A DNA stretch of 63,388 nucleotides, filler included, from Stramenopiles sp. TOSAG23-6 (GCA_900128565.1; 51 parts of 51 records of this genome joined end to end with filler, not necessarily neighbours in it); one strand, 5' to 3'. Counted from the first letter of the whole stretch, positions 1 through 34,699 are shown. Numbers and translations are program-made. The notes: a model not told the origin generated them from the sequence alone.

Positions 1-181
1 TTTTTTTTTTTTTTTTTTTTTTTTAATTTTTTTTTTTTTTTTTTTTTTGAATATTTCATAACAAAACTTCGTTTTAATTTATACAAATCAAAATATTAGT
101 CTATTCATTTATTATACATATCTAAGAAGTATTACAATAAGCAGCACTGGAGGAAAGAGATCTACAACACTATCAATAAAT

Positions 182-1093
182 TTAAAATTGTTGTTCTGGA
201 AGACCACTGTGAAAATTAAACATAATTACTTTCCCATTATCAACAACTGCCCAAAGCAAAGAAACAGAATCAACAGTTTCTGATGCTGCTAGTGCTGCAT
301 TTATACAATCAGGTGTTGGTGGTGAGGAGGTAAAATCACAGATAAATACACGAAAATTCGGAGGGTAATTCTTATCAATAATGACAGACTCATTAGCATT
401 AGAGTTAGGAACAGACTCATGGCTTACACTTTCTTTTACTTTTGTTTCCATGACGTCATTGTTTATTAAATTTTGAGTTTCTCCAGCCATAGGTTTTGAC
501 ACAATATTTTTCTTCGTACACAAATATTCAGAATTACCATCAACTTCAGTTTGTGAATTCGTACAATGTTGTTGTCTTACTTCGAGACCATACCGTTTAT
601 TAAATCTAGTATTAGGCATCCACACATCAAATGCACACCACTTTTCTAACCATGAAACCGGTGAATTAGCCTTGATAGATACAATTCTAGGCGAAGTTGA
701 GGTTAACTCAAATGCTTTCTTACACTGTAACACAACGGGAGGACTATTTCGATACCGCCTAACCGTGTATCCAGCATTACGTAGATGAGAGTAGACTAAT
801 TGACACTGCATAGACACTGCATATGGAGTCAAAAGGGGACCATATATAAAATGTTCGTATCCCCAACGAACGTCTAACTCTTCTCTTTCTTCATCCATGT
901 TTCCTTCCGCTATGTTAGGTTTAATATATAGTCGGAGTTTTCCAAGATTCATCAGAAAAAGGGCTTCCTCTGGGTATAGGAAATGCAAAGCACTATGATG
1001 GAATCCAAGAGACCGAAGATATCGACCGCGTTGAGTCGTGACCTGTATGGTGTTATTGATTGTATCCCAAGAAGCTTCACATACTTTTACCAT
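182..1093 (-). CDS. tRNA-splicing endonuclease subunit Sen54-like protein (copy 1)
   Basis: 303-aa intronless ORF with G..L.PEEALFL..G.L and VYSHLRNAGYTVRR motifs typical of the Sen54 N-terminal region. Confidence 0.7.
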   Translation of the reverse strand: MVKVCEASWDTINNTIQVTTQRGRYLRSLGFHHSALHFLYPEEALFLMNLGKLRLYIKPNIAEGNMDEEREELDVRWGYEHFIYGPLLTPYAVSMQCQLVYSHLRNAGYTVRRYRNSPPVVLQCKKAFELTSTSPRIVSIKANSPVSWLEKWCAFDVWMPNTRFNKRYGLEVRQQHCTNSQTEVDGNSEYLCTKKNIVSKPMAGETQNLINNDVMETKVKESVSHESVPNSNANESVIIDKNYPPNFRVFICDFTSSPPTPDCINAALAASETVDSVSLLWAVVDNGKVIMFNFHSGLPEQQF

Positions 1094-1152
1094 ATTGATA
1101 TAAAGCAGTGAAACTAAAACTATATAAAGCAGTGAAACTAAAACTATATAAA

Positions 1153-1252
1153 NNNNNNNNNNNNNNNNNNNNNNNNNNNNNNNNNNNNNNNNNNNNTTAA
1201 TTAATTAANNNNNNNNNNNNNNNNNNNNNNNNNNNNNNNNNNNNNNNNNNNN
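1153..1252. other. Artificial contig spacer N44-TTAATTAATTAA-N44 (first of ~50, recurring every ~1.24-1.25 kb)
   Basis: Identical linker with stops in all six frames, flanked by N runs. Contig length shrinks steadily from 1152 to ~1136 nt along the window. Confidence 0.98.
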
Positions 1253-1433
1253 TTTTTTTTTTTTTTTTTTTTTTTTAATTTTTTTTTTTTTTTTTTTTTT
1301 GAATATTTCATAACAAAACTTCGTTTTAATTTATACAAATCAAAATATTAGTCTATTCATTTATTATACATATCTAAGAAGTATTACAATAAGCAGCACT
1401 GGAGGAAAGAGATCTACAACACTATCAATAAAT

Positions 1434-2345
1434 TTAAAATTGTTGTTCTGGAAGACCACTGTGAAAATTAAACATAATTACTTTCCCATTATCAACAACT
1501 GCCCAAAGCAAAGAAACAGAATCAACAGTTTCTGATGCTGCTAGTGCTGCATTTATACAATCAGGTGTTGGTGGTGAGGAGGTAAAATCACAGATAAATA
1601 CACGAAAATTCGGAGGGTAATTCTTATCAATAATGACAGACTCATTAGCATTAGAGTTAGGAACAGACTCATGGCTTACACTTTCTTTTACTTTTGTTTC
1701 CATGACGTCATTGTTTATTAAATTTTGAGTTTCTCCAGCCATAGGTTTTGACACAATATTTTTCTTCGTACACAAATATTCAGAATTACCATCAACTTCA
1801 GTTTGTGAATTCGTACAATGTTGTTGTCTTACTTCGAGACCATACCGTTTATTAAATCTAGTATTAGGCATCCACACATCAAATGCACACCACTTTTCTA
1901 ACCATGAAACCGGTGAATTAGCCTTGATAGATACAATTCTAGGCGAAGTTGAGGTTAACTCAAATGCTTTCTTACACTGTAACACAACGGGAGGACTATT
2001 TCGATACCGCCTAACCGTGTATCCAGCATTACGTAGATGAGAGTAGACTAATTGACACTGCATAGACACTGCATATGGAGTCAAAAGGGGACCATATATA
2101 AAATGTTCGTATCCCCAACGAACGTCTAACTCTTCTCTTTCTTCATCCATGTTTCCTTCCGCTATGTTAGGTTTAATATATAGTCGGAGTTTTCCAAGAT
2201 TCATCAGAAAAAGGGCTTCCTCTGGGTATAGGAAATGCAAAGCACTATGATGGAATCCAAGAGACCGAAGATATCGACCGCGTTGAGTCGTGACCTGTAT
2301 GGTGTTATTGATTGTATCCCAAGAAGCTTCACATACTTTTACCAT
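1434..2345 (-). CDS. Sen54-like protein (identical contig copy 2)
   Basis: Contig 1253-2404 is identical to 1-1152. Confidence 0.7.
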   Translation of the reverse strand: MVKVCEASWDTINNTIQVTTQRGRYLRSLGFHHSALHFLYPEEALFLMNLGKLRLYIKPNIAEGNMDEEREELDVRWGYEHFIYGPLLTPYAVSMQCQLVYSHLRNAGYTVRRYRNSPPVVLQCKKAFELTSTSPRIVSIKANSPVSWLEKWCAFDVWMPNTRFNKRYGLEVRQQHCTNSQTEVDGNSEYLCTKKNIVSKPMAGETQNLINNDVMETKVKESVSHESVPNSNANESVIIDKNYPPNFRVFICDFTSSPPTPDCINAALAASETVDSVSLLWAVVDNGKVIMFNFHSGLPEQQF

Positions 2346-2685
2346 ATTGATATAAAGCAGTGAAACTAAAACTATATAAAGCAGTGAAACTAAAACTATA
2401 TAAANNNNNNNNNNNNNNNNNNNNNNNNNNNNNNNNNNNNNNNNNNNNTTAATTAATTAANNNNNNNNNNNNNNNNNNNNNNNNNNNNNNNNNNNNNNNN
2501 NNNNTTTTTTTTTTTTTTTTTTTTTTTTAATTTTTTTTTTTTTTTTTTTTTTGAATATTTCATAACAAAACTTCGTTTTAATTTATACAAATCAAAATAT
2601 TAGTCTATTCATTTATTATACATATCTAAGAAGTATTACAATAAGCAGCACTGGAGGAAAGAGATCTACAACACTATCAATAAAT

Positions 2686-3597
2686 TTAAAATTGTTGTTC
2701 TGGAAGACCACTGTGAAAATTAAACATAATTACTTTCCCATTATCAACAACTGCCCAAAGCAAAGAAACAGAATCAACAGTTTCTGATGCTGCTAGTGCT
2801 GCATTTATACAATCAGGTGTTGGTGGTGAGGAGGTAAAATCACAGATAAATACACGAAAATTCGGAGGGTAATTCTTATCAATAATGACAGACTCATTAG
2901 CATTAGAGTTAGGAACAGACTCATGGCTTACACTTTCTTTTACTTTTGTTTCCATGACGTCATTGTTTATTAAATTTTGAGTTTCTCCAGCCATAGGTTT
3001 TGACACAATATTTTTCTTCGTACACAAATATTCAGAATTACCATCAACTTCAGTTTGTGAATTCGTACAATGTTGTTGTCTTACTTCGAGACCATACCGT
3101 TTATTAAATCTAGTATTAGGCATCCACACATCAAATGCACACCACTTTTCTAACCATGAAACCGGTGAATTAGCCTTGATAGATACAATTCTAGGCGAAG
3201 TTGAGGTTAACTCAAATGCTTTCTTACACTGTAACACAACGGGAGGACTATTTCGATACCGCCTAACCGTGTATCCAGCATTACGTAGATGAGAGTAGAC
3301 TAATTGACACTGCATAGACACTGCATATGGAGTCAAAAGGGGACCATATATAAAATGTTCGTATCCCCAACGAACGTCTAACTCTTCTCTTTCTTCATCC
3401 ATGTTTCCTTCCGCTATGTTAGGTTTAATATATAGTCGGAGTTTTCCAAGATTCATCAGAAAAAGGGCTTCCTCTGGGTATAGGAAATGCAAAGCACTAT
3501 GATGGAATCCAAGAGACCGAAGATATCGACCGCGTTGAGTCGTGACCTGTATGGTGTTATTGATTGTATCCCAAGAAGCTTCACATACTTTTACCAT
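2686..3597 (-). CDS. Sen54-like protein (identical contig copy 3)
   Basis: Contig 2505-3656 is identical to 1-1152. Confidence 0.7.
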   Translation of the reverse strand: MVKVCEASWDTINNTIQVTTQRGRYLRSLGFHHSALHFLYPEEALFLMNLGKLRLYIKPNIAEGNMDEEREELDVRWGYEHFIYGPLLTPYAVSMQCQLVYSHLRNAGYTVRRYRNSPPVVLQCKKAFELTSTSPRIVSIKANSPVSWLEKWCAFDVWMPNTRFNKRYGLEVRQQHCTNSQTEVDGNSEYLCTKKNIVSKPMAGETQNLINNDVMETKVKESVSHESVPNSNANESVIIDKNYPPNFRVFICDFTSSPPTPDCINAALAASETVDSVSLLWAVVDNGKVIMFNFHSGLPEQQF

Positions 3598-3756
3598 ATT
3601 GATATAAAGCAGTGAAACTAAAACTATATAAAGCAGTGAAACTAAAACTATATAAANNNNNNNNNNNNNNNNNNNNNNNNNNNNNNNNNNNNNNNNNNNN
3701 TTAATTAATTAANNNNNNNNNNNNNNNNNNNNNNNNNNNNNNNNNNNNNNNNNNNN

Positions 3757-9912: not shown

Positions 9913-10101
9913 NNNNNNNNNNNNNNNNNNNNNNNNNNNNNNNNNNNNNNNNNNNNTTAATTAATTAANNNNNNNNNNNNNNNNNNNNNNNNNNNNNNNN
10001 NNNNNNNNNNNNTTCAAAAAAAAAACTTAAATTCGTTAGGTACAAAATTTCGTATGAAAAATAAATTCGATTTTTTTGTGAAAAAAAATAATAAAACATA
10101 C

Positions 10102-10900
10102 ATGATCTTGGATTATCTCGATGTTTTAATTTCCCAAGTCCTAAAGAAGGCAATGAACTCTGGAATAAACACAATTTACCACATGTATTGTAGAATATAT
10201 ATATATATAAATGATTGTTGTATTGTGTTATTATTGTATTATGTTTGTGTGTGTGTACAGTAAGTACGTCTACATATATTTTTTTTTTTGATTTTTTTAA
10301 TTTTTTAGAAAACAAAAAAAAAACGAAAAAAATGAAAAAAAAATATTTCGTGTAAAAAAAAAAAAAAAAGATATAGACAAGATACCTATATGATGCATTA
10401 CTTGGAATGCGCTCTGAAGTGCAGTTCCCATTACTGTTTCAACCTCACGGCTACCTTCAAACATTGAAGGCAACTGCTGCAATAAAAGATCAATTTGCTT
10501 TCTGGAATCTTTTAAGTTCACTAAGAGATCATCTGGTGCAGGTAAAAAAACATCCGATATCTCAGATACAACCAACATTTGAGGTTGATTTAATTGAGGT
10601 TTTAAATTGTAAAAATGAATGGATGAATCGAAAGTTATAAAACCAACTTGAGTCCTTGGTGAACCTGGTAACTTATCAAGTGATTCTGTTATAGCTTGCA
10701 AAGCGCAACGGAGCATACCAGACACTTGAGCGTTGTACGAAACATCCAAAACATACAAAATTAAAAATATGACAAATCAAGATTTTCTTTTGTAAGTCTT
10801 TAGTTCTTTTGTTTGTATAACAAAAATTAGATACTATATATTTTTTTTTTCTGTGTAAAAAAAAAATCTTTAAAAAAACAAAATCTATGAAAAATCTCTG

Positions 10901-10935
<35 letters not shown>

Positions 10936-11105
10936 TGAAACGTTCATAATAAACATTTTACATACAAACATATACGCAGGAGCTTGAGGAGGGCGGACCA
11001 TATACTCTGCAGGTGCAACAATTTCAACCTGACCACGACGTAATTCAGGCCTTTCTTGTAAATCTGTACGACGTCCTTCTTTTCCAATATGGCAGAAATA
11101 AGCGG
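10102..11105 (-). CDS. SEC24: COPII coat protein Sec24, three internal exons (11105-10966, 10752-10386, 10182-10102)
   Basis: Spliced product reads YFCHIG..GRRTD..ERPEL..G.VE..AP.EYMVRPP.AP.YMF|VLDVS...RTQVGFITFDSSIHFYNL...HHIG|GKLCLFQSSLPSLGLGKL. Confidence 0.93.
10183..10385 (-). other. GT-AT intron (Sec24)
   Basis: AG|GTATCTT...TTCTACAATACAT|GTGGTAAA gives HHIGGKLCLFQ. Confidence 0.8.
10753..10965 (-). other. GT-AT intron (Sec24)
   Basis: TTT|GTATGT...TTTTGTAT|GTTTTGGAT gives YMFVLDVS. Confidence 0.8.
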
Positions 11106-11262
11106 ATGTATTGTGAAAAAATATTTCAAAAAAAAAAAAAAATTGTTAGGTACAAAATTTCGNNNNNNNNNNNNNNNNNNNNNNNNNNNNNNNNNNNNNN
11201 NNNNNNTTAATTAATTAANNNNNNNNNNNNNNNNNNNNNNNNNNNNNNNNNNNNNNNNNNNN

Positions 11263-12412
11263 ACTCCTGACAGACAACATACACGAATTGTGGAAGACGT
11301 TGGAGAATAGGATGGAGATATCTTTTCCCCATGCCTTGAGGGATCGCGTTTTGATGCCATTATGTTTCTTTTCATATTCGAATCACTTGTGTTGCCATTA
11401 TGTAGCTGTGAAGCACTATCTGCACTAGGAATGGTCGCAGCATAATTTTTTGGGGCAAATGCTCCCACGTCACAGACAGGTGTGGACGTATAAATCTTAT
11501 AATAAATGGTAGGTGGAAAGACATATCCACCAAGGCGGAATCGAACATACATTTTACATGCTGGATCCATTAAATTTGCTTCAGATCCATTTATAGAACG
11601 TAAAATTTTTGCTGGGTCACCGGAATTGTGGAAACGAATCAAATCACGATAATATTTATATATCCTTCTATTTGCATGAGACCTCCACTGATTCTGCACC
11701 AAAAGGGCTGCTTTAATTTCTTTATCTTTATATTTTTTGCGACTCATGTATTTTGGAAAAATATTTCAAAATTCTGCTTCTAATCGTTTTGATGCGCGAT
11801 ACACATACTGTATTTCCATTGCTGCTATATGATAAATTGTAAACCTTTGCCATGTAAAATGACGGCGTAATCGCCACATCCAATACGTTGCTTGTATTTT
11901 TGAAGCAGCAAATCCTTCAATTCCTTCCTTTGAATATGTATTTTGGAAAAATATTTCAAAAAAAAATCGTTAGGTACAACATTCCGTACGAAAAAAAAAA
12001 CGAATTTGAAAAAAAATAAAACATACATTCCGAAAGATATTTCATGTACTGCTCCTGAAAAGGTAATGCTCTAATCCATTTGGACTCTACTTTTTCTATC
12101 TTATTAATTCGGGGACCTTCCCAACCTGTCAATAAAACGCGCTTTCGGGCGTAGTGTCCACGAAACTTTGTTTGAATGATTCGCACAGCTAAACTTTGGG
12201 CAGCCATTGGCATTTTCCATGGTTCGCGGATGATATCCAATGTAGTTTTTTTACCCATACGGGCAAATGAGGACATCCATATTTTAGTTAATCCCATTTT
12301 CTGTGGAATGTATCTCCCTTCTTTCTTTAATTTGCGTTCAGCTCGCCTTGCTTTTCGACGTTCTTCTTTTGTAGTCCCGGCATTCAGACGTTTTTTTTTC
12401 TTTTTCTTTGGA
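11263..12412 (-). CDS. IQ-motif protein, C11orf65/MFI-like, multi-exon, partial
   Basis: Several IQ motifs plus YYRDLI.F...GDP..ILRSIN..EA.L.D.A...VRFRLGG..FPP.IYYKI. Confidence 0.8.
11936..12026 (-). other. GT-AT intron, near-consensus copy (91 nt)
   Basis: GAAT|GTATGTTTT...TTCGTACGGAATGTTGTACCTAACG...GAAATATTTTTCCAAAATACAT|ATTC puts the IQ motif AASKIQATYW in frame. Confidence 0.85.
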
Positions 12413-16160: not shown

Positions 16161-16314
16161 NNNNNNNNNNNNNNNNNNNNNNNNNNNNNNNNNNNNNNNN
16201 NNNNTTAATTAATTAANNNNNNNNNNNNNNNNNNNNNNNNNNNNNNNNNNNNNNNNNNNNCGTACGAAATTTTGTACCTAACGATTTTTTTTTGAAATAT
16301 TTTCCAAAATACAA

Positions 16315-17298
16315 AAACTCTACTAGCTGATAGAATTGCTAGATTTGATGGACATATATTAGCTATGGTTCTTCAAACCCGTTTTAGAGACTTTGCAGTT
16401 GCAATTGCAAAGGGTATTTTGTTCAGGTCTTTCCTCGCTGTATTTGATGCGGGTACAATTTCATGATGAATTTCGAATTTATTTTGTTTTCGTACGAAAT
16501 GTTGTACCTAACGATTTGTTTTAACCAAAAGAAAAATATTTTTTTCACAATTCATGAATTTCTCGACACAAATGGTATCTCAATTTAGAATGGCGAAAAC
16601 GTCTGAGACATTATTTGATGAATTTATATTTTACCACAGACAACTTTTTTGTTATTAAAAATAAGGACTCGAGGATTGATGACCCTCAAAATCGAATTAC
16701 GGAACAAGTAGAGCAACTTTCTATAGTGATAACCGATCTTTGGACATCTTTATTGCGACCGTCATTTGATATTTGTTTCAATTCCTTCATGTACGCTTCA
16801 TTTTCATTTTCATTATAATTTTGTTTTTCATTTTCATTTTCATTATGATTTTTTTTTTTTTTTTTTTTTTTCATTTTCATTTTCATTTTCATTATGATTT
16901 TCATTAATTCGTACCAACAATTTTGTTTTAAAATATTTTTTTCACAATTTATGCTACTTAGAGTATTAGGCACATGTGGAGCAACTTATATTTCAGTGTA
17001 TATGATAGGTGCTGCACTTGTAATGCAAGTATTTGTACCAAATTTTCGTTCTCTTCGAAAGATTGAGTTTGATCTCGAAGGTAAATTTCGTTTTGTACAT
17101 TCTCGATTACTTCAACACACAGAGTCCGTAGCATTTTTTGGTGGTGGTGCCGTTGAAGAACGTATTTGCAATTCTCGTTTTGATGATCTTGCTAATCATA
17201 TCGAAACGTCCCAATTACAAAAATTACGATTTAACATATTCAATAATTTTATAATAAGGCGTACTCCTGATGTTATGGCATTTTATCTTCGTATGTAT
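16315..17298 (+). CDS. Peroxisomal ABCD-family transporter membrane domain, three exons
   Basis: TLLADRIA..., L.WRKRL.HYLM.LYF, IDDPQNRIT, EGKFRFVHSRLLQHTESVAFFGGG (EAA motif). Confidence 0.92.
16453..16555 (+). other. GT-AT intron (ABCD)
   Basis: GCGG|GTACAA...GTTGTACCTAAC...TTTCACAATTCAT|GAATT. In-frame stops on both sides constrain the junction, and the intron contains no AG after its last 25 nt begin. Confidence 0.8.
16791..16952 (+). other. GT-AT intron (ABCD)
   Basis: TTCAT|GTACGC...TTCACAATTTAT|GCTA gives NSFMLLRV. I found no AG dinucleotide in this intron. Confidence 0.85.
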
Positions 17299-17509
17299 GT
17301 ATGTTTTATTTTTTTTTTTTACAAAAGAATCGAATTTATTTTTTTATAAAAATGTTGTACCTAACAAATTTTAGTTTTTTTTTTTTTGAAATATTTTTCC
17401 AAAATACATNNNNNNNNNNNNNNNNNNNNNNNNNNNNNNNNNNNNNNNNNNNNTTAATTAATTAANNNNNNNNNNNNNNNNNNNNNNNNNNNNNNNNNNN
17501 NNNNNNNNN

Positions 17510-18362
17510 TCCAGAATGGAGGAGTCATGTCACGTTTACTGTCCTTGGCGATTACTTGGCTAAAATGGCTTGTACGTTTTCAAAATTGAATTTCAAATTA
17601 TTTATTTTTTATACCAAATGTTGTACCTAACGAATTTCGAACTAGAAATATTTTTTCCCAATATTTGGCTATCTTCCTCTATTGGTTCCAAAGAATATTA
17701 TGTAGGTCTTGATGTTGCAGATAAGGAAGATGCTATGCGCATAATTGGAAAACAGAAAGCAGAACTTGAAACGATGAAAGTGAAACTTGCATATAAATGG
17801 AATATTATTGAGAGCGAAATGATTGATCATTTCATTGAAGATGTTTGGACTAGCAGGGGCTAACACAATAGCACAGAATGCTGTCAAGACTTTTCAGTCG
17901 CCTGCTATGTATTTCCGCGTTCCATTGCATATGCAAACTACGGGTTCGTTCCTGACTTCTTTTGCTACAGATTGGGCTGAGAATAAGTGGGTTGAAGGGT
18001 CAACAATGTTTGCCGGTAAAACGGCATGTGAAAAATTAAGTGAGGATGTTGAGTTGATAAGAGATGTGAGTATTGAATATGATCAATTCGCAAAATTCAC
18101 AGAGGATGAGAAAGAATGGTTATTACATGCGGGTGATATTGCAAGTGTTGACAAGTATGTATACGCATTAACAGGGAAAAAATACAGTGCATTGGAGAAG
18201 ATGGTTAAAAGCGCGGCTAAATATTTTTCAAAAATTGATCATAATAAGTATTACGAGGGTGCTGTAGATGGTTTTATTTTCGATTATTCTGTTGGTGGTG
18301 ATGCAAAACAGTTTATCAAGGACTTCAATGCGGCAAAAGAGGCTGTTGTAGCATGTTTGTAA
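17510..18362 (+). CDS. Hypothetical protein with one intron (donor 17572) and a probable frameshift near 17830-17860
   Basis: Overlapping ORFs 17570-17863 and 17823-18362, with a branch motif at ~17622. Confidence 0.5.
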
Positions 18363-24997: not shown

Positions 24998-26144
24998 AAC
25001 GACATGCANANCGTNCTGCTATNGTAACAGANTCAATAGATAATCTACAAAAGAGTCTTGAAAGTTTAGAAAATAGTGAAACAAAAAGTAATGTAGTAGT
25101 CGGTAAAATATTGCAAAATCCATGTAGAGTTGCATTTGTATTCACTGGCCAAGGCGCACAATACTCAAATATGGCTTTTCAAATGTACCAGAACAACACT
25201 ATTTTTCGTGATGCAATGGAAGAATGCGACAAGTTCTTCGTTGAGTATATGGAAGTCTCTCTAGTTTCGAAGTTATATAAACAACTTGATACCGATGAAT
25301 CCAGCAATACAAACATATCATTAAATTTAAGTGATCCTACATTCGCACAACCAGCATTATTTGCTGTGGAGTATGCACTTTGTCAAGTCATTCAGAAGCA
25401 ACTCGGTGTTGAACCAATTGCGGTAGTGGGACATAGTCTAGGTGAGTTTGCCGCTATGTGTATAGCAGGTATGTTAACATTATCTGAGGCATGTGCCCTT
25501 GTTGCGGCTCGTGGTAAAGCAATGTCGAAACTTGCACANTCANATAGCACAGAAACTGGAACAATGGCAGCTGTATGGGAATCTGAGGAAAATNTTGAAA
25601 TANTTTTAGCTTCAGCAAATATCANAGATGTCGTTGTAGCAGTTGTCAATGGTCCTAAAAGTGTTGTANTTAGTGGTTCAGTNGAANCAATAAATAANAC
25701 NCTTGTTTTATTACACTCGAAATCAATAAAGGCAAANCGACTTGGTGTNACNAGTGGATTTCANAGTGAATGTGTTGAATCGGCAATNCCTGATATTCGT
25801 TCTGCAGCCTCAANCATTCTTCAAGGACATACCAAGNTTNATAATAATATAAAGTTTGTTTCAACTGTTACNGGTGTAGAGCTTTTATCNANCGAAAACA
25901 AATATCGAAATCCAGAATATTGGGCTTCTCAAGCACGAAATAAAGTAAAATTTGTCACTGCAATGNAAAATGTNCTNGGCGANCTTGAATGTAATGTTAT
26001 CATCGAGATTGGACCTCATCCACANTTATGTNCACANATTGANGCAATAGCNGAATCTATTTCATGTGAAGTACGAGTAATNCCCTCAATNAAGANAGAT
26101 GGAAATGATTGGAAGAATATNTGTAAAACAGCNGCAATGCTTCA
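24998..26144 (+). CDS. Type I PKS/FAS acyltransferase (AT) domain, partial (copy 1)
   Basis: FVFTGQGAQY, AQPALFAVEYAL, GHSLGE, NGP, YW..QAR..V.F and EIGP motifs. Confidence 0.93.
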
Positions 26145-26244
26145 NNNNNNNNNNNNNNNNNNNNNNNNNNNNNNNNNNNNNNNNNNNNTTAATTAATTAA
26201 NNNNNNNNNNNNNNNNNNNNNNNNNNNNNNNNNNNNNNNNNNNN

Positions 26245-27391
26245 AACGACATGCANANCGTNCTGCTATNGTAACAGANTCAATAGATAATCTACAAAAG
26301 AGTCTTGAAAGTTTAGAAAATAGTGAAACAAAAAGTAATGTAGTAGTCGGTAAAATATTGCAAAATCCATGTAGAGTTGCATTTGTATTCACTGGCCAAG
26401 GCGCACAATACTCAAATATGGCTTTTCAAATGTACCAGAACAACACTATTTTTCGTGATGCAATGGAAGAATGCGACAAGTTCTTCGTTGAGTATATGGA
26501 AGTCTCTCTAGTTTCGAAGTTATATAAACAACTTGATACCGATGAATCCAGCAATACAAACATATCATTAAATTTAAGTGATCCTACATTCGCACAACCA
26601 GCATTATTTGCTGTGGAGTATGCACTTTGTCAAGTCATTCAGAAGCAACTCGGTGTTGAACCAATTGCGGTAGTGGGACATAGTCTAGGTGAGTTTGCCG
26701 CTATGTGTATAGCAGGTATGTTAACATTATCTGAGGCATGTGCCCTTGTTGCGGCTCGTGGTAAAGCAATGTCGAAACTTGCACANTCANATAGCACAGA
26801 AACTGGAACAATGGCAGCTGTATGGGAATCTGAGGAAAATNTTGAAATANTTTTAGCTTCAGCAAATATCANAGATGTCGTTGTAGCAGTTGTCAATGGT
26901 CCTAAAAGTGTTGTANTTAGTGGTTCAGTNGAANCAATAAATAANACNCTTGTTTTATTACACTCGAAATCAATAAAGGCAAANCGACTTGGTGTNACNA
27001 GTGGATTTCANAGTGAATGTGTTGAATCGGCAATNCCTGATATTCGTTCTGCAGCCTCAANCATTCTTCAAGGACATACCAAGNTTNATAATAATATAAA
27101 GTTTGTTTCAACTGTTACNGGTGTAGAGCTTTTATCNANCGAAAACAAATATCGAAATCCAGAATATTGGGCTTCTCAAGCACGAAATAAAGTAAAATTT
27201 GTCACTGCAATGNAAAATGTNCTNGGCGANCTTGAATGTAATGTTATCATCGAGATTGGACCTCATCCACANTTATGTNCACANATTGANGCAATAGCNG
27301 AATCTATTTCATGTGAAGTACGAGTAATNCCCTCAATNAAGANAGATGGAAATGATTGGAAGAATATNTGTAAAACAGCNGCAATGCTTCA
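26245..27391 (+). CDS. Type I PKS/FAS AT domain (identical contig copy 2)
   Basis: Same sequence and same N positions as 24998-26144. Confidence 0.93.
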
Positions 27392-27504
27392 NNNNNNNNN
27401 NNNNNNNNNNNNNNNNNNNNNNNNNNNNNNNNNNNTTAATTAATTAANNNNNNNNNNNNNNNNNNNNNNNNNNNNNNNNNNNNNNNNNNNNAAAAAAAAA
27501 TTTT

Positions 27505-27539
<35 letters not shown>

Positions 27540-27718
27540 CCGGTAAAAAAAAAAATCGAATATTTTTTTTTATAGTAAATTTTGTACCTAACAAACAATT
27601 TTAGATTTTTTTTTTTTGAAATTTTTTTCCAAAATATTTATTTCTTTTCATACGAAATGTTGTACCTAACAAACAAATTTAGATTTTTTTTTTTTGAAAT
27701 ATTTTTCCAAAATACATG

Positions 27719-28465
27719 ATCTACAAAGAACAATTGAACGTCATATTACAAATTAAAATATATGATATTTTGGATTCAACAAACTTTCCGTATGACAATC
27801 AAAACAATTCGATTACTATTGATCAACAATTGAGAAAACTTCAAGAGACGAATAGTTTGAATTCATCGTGGTCGAAAGTGGCTGTGTATCATGTATGTGA
27901 ATGATTTTTTTTCATACGAAATTTTGTACCTAACAAAATTTTTAAAAAGTTTTGAACTTTTTTTTTTCATACGAAATTTTGTACCTAACAAATTTTTTAA
28001 AAAGTTTTGAACNTTTTTTTTTCACAATACATTTATTCGATTTAAGTACAAATGGGAACCAAACAATCGGTCTTGCAACTCTTGCCGAACCAAGTTATAA
28101 TGGTTTGTGTACAAAAAGCAATGCCTCTATTACCCGGGTGGTAAAATCAAATCCAAGTTGGGTGACTTTTGCCCATGAAATTGGACATAATCTTGGAGGT
28201 CGTCACGTATGTTTTTACTATTAGGGTTAGGGTTGTTTTATAATTTTTTTTTTTTTTTTTTTTGGTAAAAAAATTTTGTACCTAAGAAAAATATTTTTTT
28301 TTTGAAAATAAATATTTTTCCACAATTTATGTATGGGATATCGGGCCAGGGGAACAAGCTGGTATTGGTGGAATAATGGATTATGGAGATAAATTACAAC
28401 TTGATTATTCATATCAATTTCACCCTTCGAATAAAAAATATGTCTGTGGAGTTTTGAAAAAAAGA
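27719..28465 (+). CDS. M12B/reprolysin-type zinc metalloprotease, three exons (introns 27893-28032 and 28207-28330, both GT-AT)
   Basis: AVYH|LFD...IGLA, TFAHEIGHNLGGRH|VWD...GGIMDY supply the zinc motif and Met-turn. Confidence 0.9.
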
Positions 28466-28830
28466 TTTTTTTTTTTTTTTTTTTTTTTTTTAGTAAATTT
28501 TTTACCTAAAAATTTTTTTTAAAAATTTTGAAAAATTTTTTAAAAAAAAATTTTTTTTTTTTTTTTTTTTTTTTGTAGTAAATTTTGTTCCTAACAATTT
28601 TTTTAGAAAATTTTGAAATATTTTTCAAAAAATATGTNNNNNNNNNNNNNNNNNNNNNNNNNNNNNNNNNNNNNNNNNNNNTTAATTAATTAANNNNNNN
28701 NNNNNNNNNNNNNNNNNNNNNNNNNNNNNNNNNNNNNATTACTTAAACCATTTCTTGACGGTAAAAGTCCAGAATCACCTGAAAATGATTTTTCTAGTAA
28801 ACTACTACTGTCGGTATTATTCGCCATTTA

Positions 28831-29883: not shown

Positions 29884-30007
29884 NNNNNNNNNNNNNNNNN
29901 NNNNNNNNNNNNNNNNNNNNNNNNNNNTTAATTAATTAANNNNNNNNNNNNNNNNNNNNNNNNNNNNNNNNNNNNNNNNNNNNTTTTTAAAATTTATCTA
30001 ACTTTTT

Positions 30008-30046
<39 letters not shown>

Positions 30047-30103
30047 TAGATAATTTTGTACCTAACAAATTTCACATTGTTGACCTATTTTTGTACAAAA
30101 TAT

Positions 30104-30633
30104 ATGAAAGAGAAAGATCAAATTTAGCTTGGGATAAAAAACAACAACAACAACAACAACAACAAAATATTCAGCACTATAAAACTAAAACATCCAAACA
30201 TTTTAACCCTAACCCTAACCCTACAACATTTAATAATACTAGTCAAATATCAAAAGGTTCATTTGAACAATCATTTAAAGTACAAAAATCTTCTTCTTTT
30301 GTACATAGTACTACAGAAACTCATTGGAGAAACCCACAAAATATTAAAAATATTAAAAATATGAAAAATATGAAAAATAGTAAAAATATTAAAAATACAC
30401 GAAATATTTATCATGGGTCAGGAAGAATTCCGCCACGTGGCACACCACCAATACGAAGTTTTAATACAAAAAATACATACAGACACAGAAATGATTCTCT
30501 TTCGTCTACTACACGAAATCTTAATATCCTGGAAAATAGAACTTCACATCGTAACCCTAACCCTAATGAAAGAAGGACAACAAGAACATTACGTAGGACA
30601 AAATCATATACAAATGTAAGGTATAAACCCTAA
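30104..30633 (+). CDS. Low-complexity terminal exon (poly-Q, NP and KNI repeats); contig repeated at 31229-32373 and 32474-33618
   Basis: Follows the branch motif at ~30057. Three identical contigs. Confidence 0.55.
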
Positions 30634-31252
30634 CCCTAATGAAAGAAGGACAACAAGAACATTACGTAGGACGAAATCATATACAAATGTGTAAGGTATA
30701 AACCATCATAAGTCTTTTTAAAAATTATGTAGGATTACATTGTATACAAATGTGTAAGGTATAAACCATCATAAGTCTTTAAAAATAAAATAAAAAATAA
30801 ATCATTATACAATCATTTTACGTAGTATGAAACATTTTACTATTAAGAATAACATTACTTATATTCAACGTTTCATACTTTACAACTAGGTAGGTAATAA
30901 CTAGTGCTCTACGTATCTTTAGATTCTGTACCATTTTTTTGTACTTTGTTTTTTAGGTATGAAAAAATGGTACGGAATCCCCTACTTGATTATATTGAGG
31001 AATTAATTAAGTCTACTTTTACAATTTACTTGATGTGAAGATGATTATATTTTATTTGTTATATTTTTATTTTTTTTTTATGTATGGACACAACCACCAT
31101 ACATTCATTTATTTTGTCCCTAGGAAGANNNNNNNNNNNNNNNNNNNNNNNNNNNNNNNNNNNNNNNNNNNNTTAATTAATTAANNNNNNNNNNNNNNNN
31201 NNNNNNNNNNNNNNNNNNNNNNNNNNNNTTTTTAAAATTTATCTAACTTTTT

Positions 31253-31291
<39 letters not shown>

Positions 31292-32497
31292 TAGATAATT
31301 TTGTACCTAACAAATTTCACATTGTTGACCTATTTTTGTACAAAATATATGAAAGAGAAAGATCAAATTTAGCTTGGGATAAAAAACAACAACAACAACA
31401 ACAACAACAAAATATTCAGCACTATAAAACTAAAACATCCAAACATTTTAACCCTAACCCTAACCCTACAACATTTAATAATACTAGTCAAATATCAAAA
31501 GGTTCATTTGAACAATCATTTAAAGTACAAAAATCTTCTTCTTTTGTACATAGTACTACAGAAACTCATTGGAGAAACCCACAAAATATTAAAAATATTA
31601 AAAATATGAAAAATATGAAAAATAGTAAAAATATTAAAAATACACGAAATATTTATCATGGGTCAGGAAGAATTCCGCCACGTGGCACACCACCAATACG
31701 AAGTTTTAATACAAAAAATACATACAGACACAGAAATGATTCTCTTTCGTCTACTACACGAAATCTTAATATCCTGGAAAATAGAACTTCACATCGTAAC
31801 CCTAACCCTAATGAAAGAAGGACAACAAGAACATTACGTAGGACAAAATCATATACAAATGTAAGGTATAAACCCTAACCCTAATGAAAGAAGGACAACA
31901 AGAACATTACGTAGGACGAAATCATATACAAATGTGTAAGGTATAAACCATCATAAGTCTTTTTAAAAATTATGTAGGATTACATTGTATACAAATGTGT
32001 AAGGTATAAACCATCATAAGTCTTTAAAAATAAAATAAAAAATAAATCATTATACAATCATTTTACGTAGTATGAAACATTTTACTATTAAGAATAACAT
32101 TACTTATATTCAACGTTTCATACTTTACAACTAGGTAGGTAATAACTAGTGCTCTACGTATCTTTAGATTCTGTACCATTTTTTTGTACTTTGTTTTTTA
32201 GGTATGAAAAAATGGTACGGAATCCCCTACTTGATTATATTGAGGAATTAATTAAGTCTACTTTTACAATTTACTTGATGTGAAGATGATTATATTTTAT
32301 TTGTTATATTTTTATTTTTTTTTTATGTATGGACACAACCACCATACATTCATTTATTTTGTCCCTAGGAAGANNNNNNNNNNNNNNNNNNNNNNNNNNN
32401 NNNNNNNNNNNNNNNNNTTAATTAATTAANNNNNNNNNNNNNNNNNNNNNNNNNNNNNNNNNNNNNNNNNNNNTTTTTAAAATTTATCTAACTTTTT

Positions 32498-32536
<39 letters not shown>

Positions 32537-33783
32537 TAGATAATTTTGTACCTAACAAATTTCACATTGTTGACCTATTTTTGTACAAAATATATGAAAG
32601 AGAAAGATCAAATTTAGCTTGGGATAAAAAACAACAACAACAACAACAACAACAAAATATTCAGCACTATAAAACTAAAACATCCAAACATTTTAACCCT
32701 AACCCTAACCCTACAACATTTAATAATACTAGTCAAATATCAAAAGGTTCATTTGAACAATCATTTAAAGTACAAAAATCTTCTTCTTTTGTACATAGTA
32801 CTACAGAAACTCATTGGAGAAACCCACAAAATATTAAAAATATTAAAAATATGAAAAATATGAAAAATAGTAAAAATATTAAAAATACACGAAATATTTA
32901 TCATGGGTCAGGAAGAATTCCGCCACGTGGCACACCACCAATACGAAGTTTTAATACAAAAAATACATACAGACACAGAAATGATTCTCTTTCGTCTACT
33001 ACACGAAATCTTAATATCCTGGAAAATAGAACTTCACATCGTAACCCTAACCCTAATGAAAGAAGGACAACAAGAACATTACGTAGGACAAAATCATATA
33101 CAAATGTAAGGTATAAACCCTAACCCTAATGAAAGAAGGACAACAAGAACATTACGTAGGACGAAATCATATACAAATGTGTAAGGTATAAACCATCATA
33201 AGTCTTTTTAAAAATTATGTAGGATTACATTGTATACAAATGTGTAAGGTATAAACCATCATAAGTCTTTAAAAATAAAATAAAAAATAAATCATTATAC
33301 AATCATTTTACGTAGTATGAAACATTTTACTATTAAGAATAACATTACTTATATTCAACGTTTCATACTTTACAACTAGGTAGGTAATAACTAGTGCTCT
33401 ACGTATCTTTAGATTCTGTACCATTTTTTTGTACTTTGTTTTTTAGGTATGAAAAAATGGTACGGAATCCCCTACTTGATTATATTGAGGAATTAATTAA
33501 GTCTACTTTTACAATTTACTTGATGTGAAGATGATTATATTTTATTTGTTATATTTTTATTTTTTTTTTATGTATGGACACAACCACCATACATTCATTT
33601 ATTTTGTCCCTAGGAAGANNNNNNNNNNNNNNNNNNNNNNNNNNNNNNNNNNNNNNNNNNNNTTAATTAATTAANNNNNNNNNNNNNNNNNNNNNNNNNN
33701 NNNNNNNNNNNNNNNNNNTACCTAACAATTTTTTTTTTTTTTTACGGAAAAAAAAAATTTTGAAATATTTTTCCAAAATATAG

Positions 33784-34699
33784 GTGTTGGTACTGGTACA
33801 ATGATGGGTGAAATTGATGTTGAAAAAAATGGCGAATCTCCACAGATTTTTTATAATGATGATGAGGAAGATATTGAAAGCAGACCAAATAGTTCATGGT
33901 CAACACAGTCAAGTTTTCAACAACACCAAAAAGAAAAAAAAGCAAATAAAATACGTCAAATGATTGATCAAAATACAAAACAAAATAATTATGAAAAAAA
34001 ACAAAACCCTAACCCTAATAATGAAAACACTAACCCTAATCCTAATGAAAATCCTAATGATAATCCTAGTCCTACTAATGATGATGATGATGATTCTGAT
34101 GATGACATCATTGCGATACGTAATATGAATGAATCTGGAAATGGTAGTACATTTACAACGACATCATTGGACAGTTTTGTGCGTGTCTGGGACATTGGAC
34201 CTGGAACGTGTACGTTTTCATCATGAATTTATTAATTTAATTTTTTTTTTTTTGGTTTTTTTCGTAAAAAAATTTCGTACCTAACGATATTTTTTTTTTT
34301 GGTAAAATTCGTGTTTTTTCACAATACATGTGTAGCAAAACTCGATGAAGTTCATACAGCCCATGTAACACAATCGTTACTCAATATCGATGGTACAAAA
34401 TTATTTACATCTTCTGAAGATAAAACAATAAAAATTTGGAAAAGAGAATCAAATCAAATGTATGAAACTATACAAACTTTAGTAGGACATAATAAATCGA
34501 TTTCGTGTTTATGCACATGTATGTCAACAACCTTTGATGTTGATGAATTATTTATGGAAGATAAAAATACTAAAAATACTGAAAATAGTAAAAATAGTTT
34601 AAGTGAACACTATTTATTTAGTGGTTCTATTGATACTACAATAAAAATGTGGAGCGTGGGTGGTACCGAAACATCTGGGAAACTCATTCGGACATTAAT
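33784..34699 (+). CDS. WD40 repeat protein, two exons (upstream AG acceptor at 33783; GT-AT intron 34210-34329)
   Basis: SLDSFVRVWDIGPGT|CVAKLDEVH...SSEDKTIKIW...GHNKSI...SGSIDTTIKMW. Confidence 0.9.

Follow-up and report, generated by a model that had tools for sequence, protein, structure and literature searches.

Introduction

The AG that closes an intron is among the most constant signals of eukaryotic genes. The non-canonical introns of the larvacean tunicates Fritillaria borealis and F. pellucida appear to be the closest known case to the subject of this report, a family of introns that begin with GT and end with AT in 63,388 nucleotides (nt) of DNA from Stramenopiles sp. TOSAG23-6 (GCA_900128565.1), hereafter the window. 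In the accessible parts of the two reports on Fritillaria (PMC13326754, PMC11282704), AT is given as the commonest 3' intron end (44% in F. pellucida and 34% in F. borealis), AG/AC and AG/AT introns dominate in F. borealis, a YAY triplet often stands before the 5' splice site and as the last three intron bases, and a T-rich tract precedes the 3' end. Ends resembling terminal inverted repeats (TIRs) and target-site duplications (TSDs) were read there as an origin from miniature inverted-repeat transposable elements, removal was ascribed to the U2-type spliceosome, and duplicated U2AF subunits were proposed as the readers of the new 3' ends.

Three further systems bear on the case. Known introners keep canonical GT/GC-AG ends, and curation pipelines drop unfamiliar ones, according to the available portion of PMC12130899. 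For the elements of Amoebophrya, the available sections of PMC7789003 and PMC11282704 describe highly variable intron ends with repeats of 3-5 nt, and U1 was reported missing. The nonconventional introns of euglenids and diplonemids are characterized in the accessible text of PMC12621601 and PMC6221363 by the lack of conserved termini and by stable pairing of G+C-rich ends.

The window is not a single locus. It consists of 51 contigs of 1,136-1,152 nt each, ordered by size and joined by N44-TTAATTAATTAA-N44 spacers (e.g., 1153-1252), and has a G+C content of ∼30%. Of these contigs 45 are unique (51,505 nt, 90 ends) and the remainder are second or third copies. The original prediction concerned positions 11936-12028, which were read as an introner-like element with inverted termini and a 2-nt duplication of AT. 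Here, the introns of the whole window are described, the boundaries are examined by reading frame, homology and RNA, and the possible origins of the family are weighed.

Introns with AT at the 3' end

The predicted AT^GTAT..ATACAT architecture (carets mark splice junctions) was confirmed at 11936-12028, and it recurs in the window far beyond chance. The minus strand reads ..GGAAT^GTATGTTTTATTTT...CGTACGGAATGTTGTACCTAAC...CCAAAATACAT^ATTCAAAGG, where the intron (11936-12026) has the start GTATGTTTT, the middle CGTACGGAATGTTGTACCTAAC and the end GAAATATTTTTCCAAAATACAT, and the exonic AT occupies 12027-12028. The introns with which it had been compared are real relatives: 60081-60181 is complete, whereas contig starts have reduced 16261-16313 and 57303-57377 to their 3' parts. 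The general form of the element is (C)AT^GTAYGTTTT ... CGTACGAAATTTTGTACCTAAC ... TTTTTYCA(C/A)AATAYAT^; it is AT-rich and ∼100 nt long. At least 26 complete introns were collected, together with 8 additional donors and 8 additional acceptors from copies that a contig end interrupts, which resulted in 34 donors and 34 acceptors (∼16 truncated copies). The acceptors were placed on the conserved motif and the reading-frame test was applied afterwards; homology fixes just four of them.

The donor is strongly conserved. From the junction on, the 34 donors have G in 34, T in 34, A in 33, Y (T/C) in 33, G in 28 and T in 32 cases, followed by TTT. The acceptor consensus (n = 34) is TTTTT-Y-C-A-(C/A)-A-A-T-A-(C/T)-A-T^, and 32 of the 34 acceptors end in AT, the other two being an AG (45320-45439) and an ambiguous TT (17572-17666). 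In 22 introns, the motif CTAAC, which resembles a branch site, precedes the 3' end by 30-67 nt (median ∼41). Intron lengths range from 63 to 216 nt with a median near 105-110, and the G+C content of the introns is 18%. Twelve of 24 introns are in phase 1, eight in phase 0 and four in phase 2, numbers that are too few to interpret.

The exon sequence at the junctions is biased as well, in agreement with the original prediction. Upstream of the donor, C is present at -3 in 19/34, A at -2 in 23/34 and T at -1 in 29/34 cases; an exon-terminal AT stands before 21 of the 34 donors versus a 10% background for the AT dinucleotide, and 13 donors lack it. This exon-end (C)AT bias mirrors the last (C)AT of the intron, and position -3 of the exon and that of the intron showed no co-variation beyond composition. 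In the same way, a YAY triplet closes 29 of the 34 introns and precedes 18 of the 34 donors. Of the 33 cases in which the following exon can be read, 20 have G as its first base.

Reading frame, homology and RNA at the intron boundaries

The GT..AT boundaries follow from the reading frame and from homology. With the GT fixed, the acceptor set after ..YAT and flanks of 90 nt, the frame was open in 21 of 23 introns, whereas offsets of ±1 or ±2 left it open in 5-7 of 23. The two failures were 44197-44292, which is in phase and meets a stop ∼85 nt downstream, and 54910-55013, for which a donor located 40 nt upstream (54870) restores the phase. With 81-nt flanks and one corrected donor, the frame was open in 25 of 25 introns, and in 24 of those it was the single open frame. 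Use of the AG located 4 nt downstream of 60688 would break the frame.

Four junctions could be fixed by alignment. In the ABCD transporter gene, the junction of 16790 with 16953 places aligned residues 894 and 898 of chain 9wfg_A on its two sides, and the residues S, F and M across the junction fill 895-897. Both Sec24 junctions are gapless against P0201, with F = 201 and V = 202 for 10966 joined to 10752, and G = 324 followed by G = 325 for 10386 joined to 10182. In the gene with the RIH_assoc domain (intron 48867-49005), the upstream exon stops at position 39 of the Pfam profile and the downstream exon starts at position 40. The ends of single introns can be slid by one or two bases, since the flanking letters repeat; GT..AT alone fits every intron.

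At one donor, the boundary was also observed in RNA. A contig of 260 nt from a polyA metatranscriptome (X9 record 26) follows the genome over 17105-17298, after which come 66 letters of other sequence; it departs from the genome exactly where GTATGTTTT begins at 17299. By comparison, one seawater-metagenome DNA contig (X4 record 1) extends into the intron, to 17304. On the contig concerned (16261-17409), the read joints were dominated by cross-matches among repeat copies, and the exons 16339-16455 and 16573-16611 were uncovered, so that no contig bridges a whole intron there. For the removal of GT..AT, the support from frame and homology is good and that from RNA is thin.

The Sec24 contig (10013-11162) offers a further observation. 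The library protein P0200 (215 aa), which is 97% identical to the Sec24 exon, translates through two of the GT..AT introns, and this suggests that gene prediction based on GT-AG missed the GT-AT introns.

Similarity beyond the splice signals

Most of the introns belong to one repeat family whose similarity extends past the splice signals. The 12-mer TTTGTACCTAAC at its core has 32 exact occurrences (30 without the triplicated contig) versus 0.00 expected from 100 shuffles. As the original prediction held, blocks are common to introns of unrelated genes: in an all-versus-all comparison, copies were 88-100% identical over 55-90 nt, while other pairs were much more diverged. Examples are 10018-10103 (Sec24) and 52344-52430 (93% over 87 nt), 10013-10077 and 44898-44962 (98% over 65 nt), and 28466-28549 and 59035-59118 (96% over 84 nt). 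The core is tandemly doubled within single introns (27893-28032 and 27504-27716) and occurs in the variants CGTACGAAAT, CATACGAAAT, CATAGTAAAT and GGTAAAAAAAT. Two Sec24 introns (10753-10965 and 10183-10385) have neither the core nor the GAAATATTTTT module and are still GT..AT introns, which shows that those modules are not required for removal.

The family also leaves traces in assemblies. Of the 90 unique contig ends, 22 lie at most 110 nt from a core, as would be expected if a high-copy repeat breaks the assembly. Thousands of DNA and RNA contigs from seawater sampled in other years match parts of the element at ≥90% identity (X4 4231, X5 872, X7 603).

The near-palindrome GTACGAAATTTTGTAC of the core was considered as a hairpin and rejected, as the variants CATAGTAAAT and GGTAAAAAAAT alter one arm and no compensation is present. 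A TA-bounded reading, as an internal eliminated sequence (IES) or a mariner-like element, was also rejected, because conservation continues through the TA on both sides.

Host organism and further features

The Pfam scan found ordinary eukaryotic genes, namely those for an ABCD transporter, Sec24, eIF2D, BRCT, RIH_assoc, reprolysin-like, EGF, ankyrin, U-box and DUF938 proteins; a tetratricopeptide-repeat region turned out on closer look to be WDR19/IFT144. Genes carrying family introns include the ABCD, Sec24, WDR19, IP3R-like, reprolysin-like and IQ-motif genes. Long open reading frames (ORFs) were obtained with the standard genetic code, and sequence of the window is also present in small DNA runs of 2015 from one organism and in seawater metagenomes and metatranscriptomes.

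The ABCD exon matched a chain of 1,337 residues named 'ABC transporter D family member 1' at 4e-30 and human ABCD1 at 2e-9. In the protein library, its relatives were only 43-63% identical, and thus no transcript-derived protein of the same organism is among them. Sec24 is equidistant (55-56%) from cotton and vertebrate Sec24B, with its nearest relative in the protein library at 61%. The DUF938 protein has its best named relatives in Diplonema, Symbiodinium and Diacronema (44-47%). WDR19 is 41-49% identical to the proteins of Rhodelphis, green algae and stramenopiles, and in a FastTree phylogeny without support values it groups with unnamed sequences beside stramenopile clades and far from animals. 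These comparisons suggest that the host is an uncultured marine protist and not an animal or tunicate; it may be close to the stramenopiles, a weak placement.

The coordinates of individual introns and of the repeated contigs are listed in Table 1. In the ABCD intron 16791-16952, a microsatellite resembling (ATTTTC)n and a long T run (16790-16907) replace the usual 5' modules. Short telomere-like runs of TTAGGG/CCCTAA in either orientation lie within three introns (28225-28237, inside 53197-53343, and inside 52792-53007 on the minus strand) and also in a ∼75-nt repeat (30600-30800) of the triplicated contig 29984-31128. At 33790-33802, a family copy ends in ..CCAAAATATAG^GTG; either the AG or the AT two bases earlier may serve as its end, and the upstream exon is missing. 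Within 43657-44400, a plus-strand kinase exon seems to begin after ..CTCTAG^, which is a canonical-looking ..TTTTTTTGTTGTACTCTAG^ acceptor, and this exon is antisense to the last short exon of the minus-strand gene with the intron 44197-44292.

Table 1. Introns, intron parts and repeated contigs located in the window (carets mark junctions).
Positions	Strand	Feature	Support or remark
11936-12026	-	Family intron of the original prediction, IQ-motif gene, 91 nt	Frame open (phase 1) without GT..AT
12027-12028	-	Exonic AT directly before the donor, putative target-site copy	Sequence
11746-11808	-	Probable short intron, 63 nt, keeps the 3' module (GAAATATTTTTCCAAAATACAT) only, in-frame TGA inside	Donor possibly 6 nt further in
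10753-10965	-	Sec24 intron without GTACCTAAC core: GTATGTAAAA .. AATTTTGTAT^	Gapless junction against P0201
10183-10385	-	Sec24 intron without core: GTATCTTG .. TTCTACAATACAT^	Gapless junction against P0201
10013-10101	-	Family intron, 5' part CAT^GTATGTTTTATT.., stopped by contig end	Sequence
11106-11162	-	Family intron, 3' part ..TTTTTTCACAATACAT^, stopped by contig end	Sequence
16453-16555	+	ABCD transporter intron, GG^GTACAATTTC .. TTCACAATTCAT^G	Phase 1
16791-16952	+	ABCD transporter intron, CAT^GTACGC .. CACAATTTAT^G	Gapless against chain 9wfg_A
17299-17409	+	ABCD transporter intron, ends ..CCAAAATACAT at contig end	PolyA RNA contig departs at donor
27893-28032	+	Reprolysin-like gene intron, core and spacer in tandem duplicate	Phase 0
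28207-28330	+	Family intron with TTAGGGTTAGGG inside	Sequence
34210-34329	+	Family intron, GTACGTTTTCATCA .. TTCACAATACAT^	Single open frame
44197-44292	-	Family intron with unslidable ends, CTC^GTACG .. ATACAT^TAC	Frame test
45320-45439	-	Family intron ending ACAG, sole AG acceptor of 34	Sequence
48867-49005	-	IP3R/RyR-like gene intron (RIH_assoc domain)	Pfam profile junction
60081-60181	+	Complete family intron cited in the original prediction, CAT^GTATGTTTT .. CCAAAATAAAT^G	Frame
60586-60688	+	Family intron; AG 4 nt beyond the AT end	Frame open at offset 0, closed at +4
54870-55013	+	Family intron	In phase only with donor 54870 (or 54858), not 54910
43657-43745	-	Truncated copy, GC instead of GT donor; antisense to plus-strand kinase exon	By eye only
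1-3656; 29984-33618		Repeated contigs, x3 each	
24998-27391; 38689-41072		Repeated contigs, x2 each	

Origin of the introns

Based on these results, the elements are probably GT..AT spliceosomal introns of a marine protist, mostly copies of one element family that multiplied in the manner of introners. They would be U2-type-like introns with AT, not AG, as the 3' splice site, and each would carry four signals: the donor GTAYGTTTT, the branch-site-like CTAAC, the T-rich tract and the 3' motif CA(C/A)AATAYAT^. The modules TCGAATTTATTTTT, CGTACGAAATTTTGTAC and GAAATATTTTT would be extra parts of the family that splicing does not need. We infer that the spliceosome removes the introns and that the family is or was mobile. 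The family (∼100 nt, 18% G+C) appears to have been multiplied through genes like an introner, an origin that we consider likely, and it may have spread either as a DNA transposon that makes an AT duplication or by reverse splicing into (C)AT^G sites.

The first of these routes had been proposed in the original prediction, and part of it stands. The GT..AT introns, the single family and the AT bias are borne out, whereas 13 of the 34 donors have no AT and no transposase was found among the 169 ORFs scanned. Flanks without a match do exist, as was noted at the outset (AG^ at 10386, GG^ at 16452, AC^ at 28206, and AT^..AG at 45320-45439). The inverted termini ATGTAT/ATACAT are present and amount to 6 nt including the exonic AT, but 14 donors of the GTAC type break the pairing with no compensation at the 3' end. 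Because the bias can also be accounted for by reverse splicing or by a preference for (C)AT^G protosplice sites, the duplication of AT by a DNA transposon is treated here as hypothetical.

In an RNA-based route, excised introns would enter (C)AT^G sites in other transcripts by reverse splicing and be copied back into the genome, and the exonic AT would reflect a protosplice preference. We regard this as rather unlikely. The repeated unit is the spliced unit, the terminal inverted repeat measures at most 6 nt, and the preference for G at the start of the next exon (20/33) would fit such a site. In 37 of 44 copies, the element and the longer of the flanking ORFs share a strand (5 opposite, 2 ties), so copies within genes are essentially all in sense orientation; this bias is weak evidence, because gene-dense contigs of 1.1 kb offer little chance of intergenic copies. 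A domain scan of the 169 ORFs of at least 55 aa that passed a low-complexity filter, of 238 listed, found no transposase, reverse-transcriptase or integrase domain. The lack of a transposase among them favors the RNA route, and the lack of a reverse transcriptase counts against it. Introners that were first ascribed to RNA routes reportedly proved to be DNA transposons in the work of Huff et al. in 2016, which also speaks against it.

The introns could also be ordinary and old, with a strict, extended consensus of splice signals, nothing mobile about them and every shared block functional. The 5' motif, the 3' motif and CTAAC are common to the introns as a whole, all useful copies are sense-oriented, the 169 ORFs contain no transposase, and the linkage that would mark subfamilies is not significant (p = 0.063). 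A strict consensus normally marks intron-poor genomes, whereas intron density is high here, with four introns in the Sec24 contig of 1,150 nt. Furthermore, identity reaches 93-100% over most of the length in some pairs and others are far more diverged, cores occur in tandem within introns, the assembly breaks at the element, and the Sec24 introns without the core and GAAATATTTTT show that these modules are dispensable. The claim of the original prediction that the similarity is not limited to splice signals thus holds, on the strength of the near-identical copies, the coreless GT..AT introns and the tandem cores, and an explanation by strict signals seems improbable.

A removal that does not involve the spliceosome, either of structure-defined nonconventional introns as in euglenids and diplonemids or of somatic DNA as with the IESs of ciliates, is very improbable. 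Pairing of the ends is possible (AUGUAU with AUACAU), both ends are joined in three of six minimum-energy folds, and marine single-cell genomes of diplonemids have been reported with noncanonical introns in the accessible part of PMC12621601. Against this, the RNA folds of the six introns were no stabler than those of shuffled sequences (z from -0.65 to +0.38), the GT is invariant within a GTAYGT consensus, CTAAC and the T-rich tract are present, and the copies are strand-specific. The WDR19 tree and the best hits do not put the host among the Euglenozoa, the telomere-like repeats are TTAGGG and not of the ciliate type, and the standard code yields long ORFs.

Typical U12-type introns have an ATATCC or GTATCC donor box and a TCCTTAAC branch site near the 3' end. 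That the boundaries were misread, and the introns are really AT-AC (U12-type) or canonical GT-AG introns with shifted ends, is scarcely credible: where the exon ends in AT, an ATGTAT..ATAC reading gives the same mRNA (e.g., 60586-60688), but AT-AC is impossible at the 13 donors with no AT in front, the donor GTAYGTTTT has no U12 ATATCC box, CTAAC at 30-67 nt is farther from the end than U12 branch sites, and no in-frame AG is present at the four homology-fixed junctions.

Several results weigh against the preferred reading of spliceosomal introns multiplied like introners. No spliceosome components of the organism were seen, and Rfam at the gathering threshold found no small nuclear RNA in the window. 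The placement of the acceptors by eye on the motif preceded their testing. The RNA data amount to one contig at one donor, with no read or contig across a whole intron and no 3' junction in RNA (contig 16261-17409). Nothing resembling a transposase domain was present among the 169 ORFs, and an autonomous element would not fit into contigs of 1.1 kb. Within the window, where contigs are gene-dense and ∼1.1 kb long, there was no clear case of an intergenic or antisense copy, and the one antisense fragment (43657-43745) is doubtful. An exact search for the 20-nt core gave no match among JGI metagenome contigs or IMG/VR viral contigs. The linkage between T or C at donor +4 (GTATG/GTACG) and A or C at 3' position -8 (CCAAAAT/CACAAT) was a trend only (6:5 versus 1:10, Fisher p = 0.063). 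Finally, the contigs are just ∼1.1 kb long and the assembly is amplified and prone to chimeras. The contig 58542-59679 is a perfect inverted repeat whose two ends are mutually reverse-complementary, with mirrored element copies at 59035-59118 and 59103-59186, which is a typical sign of a whole-genome-amplification chimera.

A wider reading is more tentative, and we would put it at somewhat less than an even chance: a free-living marine protist lineage may have exchanged AG for AT across its genome through one introner family that brought its own 3' end and possibly a duplicated AT target. If true, the Fritillaria case would have been repeated independently in a unicellular eukaryote. It would predict altered readers of the 3' splice site (U2AF-like factors) in this organism, and public gene models built for it on GT-AG would be largely wrong, as P0200 illustrates. 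The literature search found no report of a protist genome dominated by GT-AT introns, and papers beyond the searched literature may exist. In the portions of the literature that were available, a large-scale escape toward AT is in print only for larvacean tunicates, and duplicated U2AF subunits have been put forward there to explain it. With a second lineage, unrelated to these animals, unicellular, abundant in seawater and almost uniformly GT-AT in its introns, it would be possible to test whether the same changes of the splicing machinery recur, and whether an invading element can rewrite the splice code of a genome. In practical terms, prediction based on GT-AG fails here, as with P0200, and gene catalogues of the organism from single cells or metagenomes are likely corrupted.

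Comparison with known intron systems

The introns of euglenids and of hemistasiid and eupelagonemid diplonemids are comparable to those of the window in that non-GT-AG introns are abundant in marine flagellates and the ends can pair; unlike those described in the accessible parts of PMC12621601 and PMC6221363, the introns reported here have conserved termini, an AT-rich sequence and folds that are not stable. The Amoebophrya elements are closer in kind, being multi-copy introns of a marine protist, in the majority non-canonical, with ends that resemble TIRs and TSDs (PMC7789003, PMC11282704, as far as the available sections go). In the window, however, the two ends are uniform (GT and AT), with a classic GTAYGT of the U1/U6 type as the donor.

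With the introners of Micromonas, Aureococcus, dinoflagellates and others, as portrayed in the available portions of the literature, the family shares the occurrence of numerous similar short introns across unrelated genes of an aquatic protist and an element that brings its own splice signals, and one splice site could derive from a duplicated target. It differs from known introners in the AT at its 3' end, and its mobility, its TSD and an autonomous partner are putative.

The introns of Fritillaria have the 3' AT within YAY and YAY before the 5' site in common with those of the window, where this applies to 29/34 acceptors and 18/34 donors. A T-rich tract ahead of the 3' end is shared as well. 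Unlike in Fritillaria, the 5' end is here an invariant GT (34/34) in a strong GTAYGT, with no non-GT donors, and the host is a protist whose proteins do not group with those of animals. A single family with a 20-nt core dominates in the window, and AT is nearly the sole 3' end (32/34).

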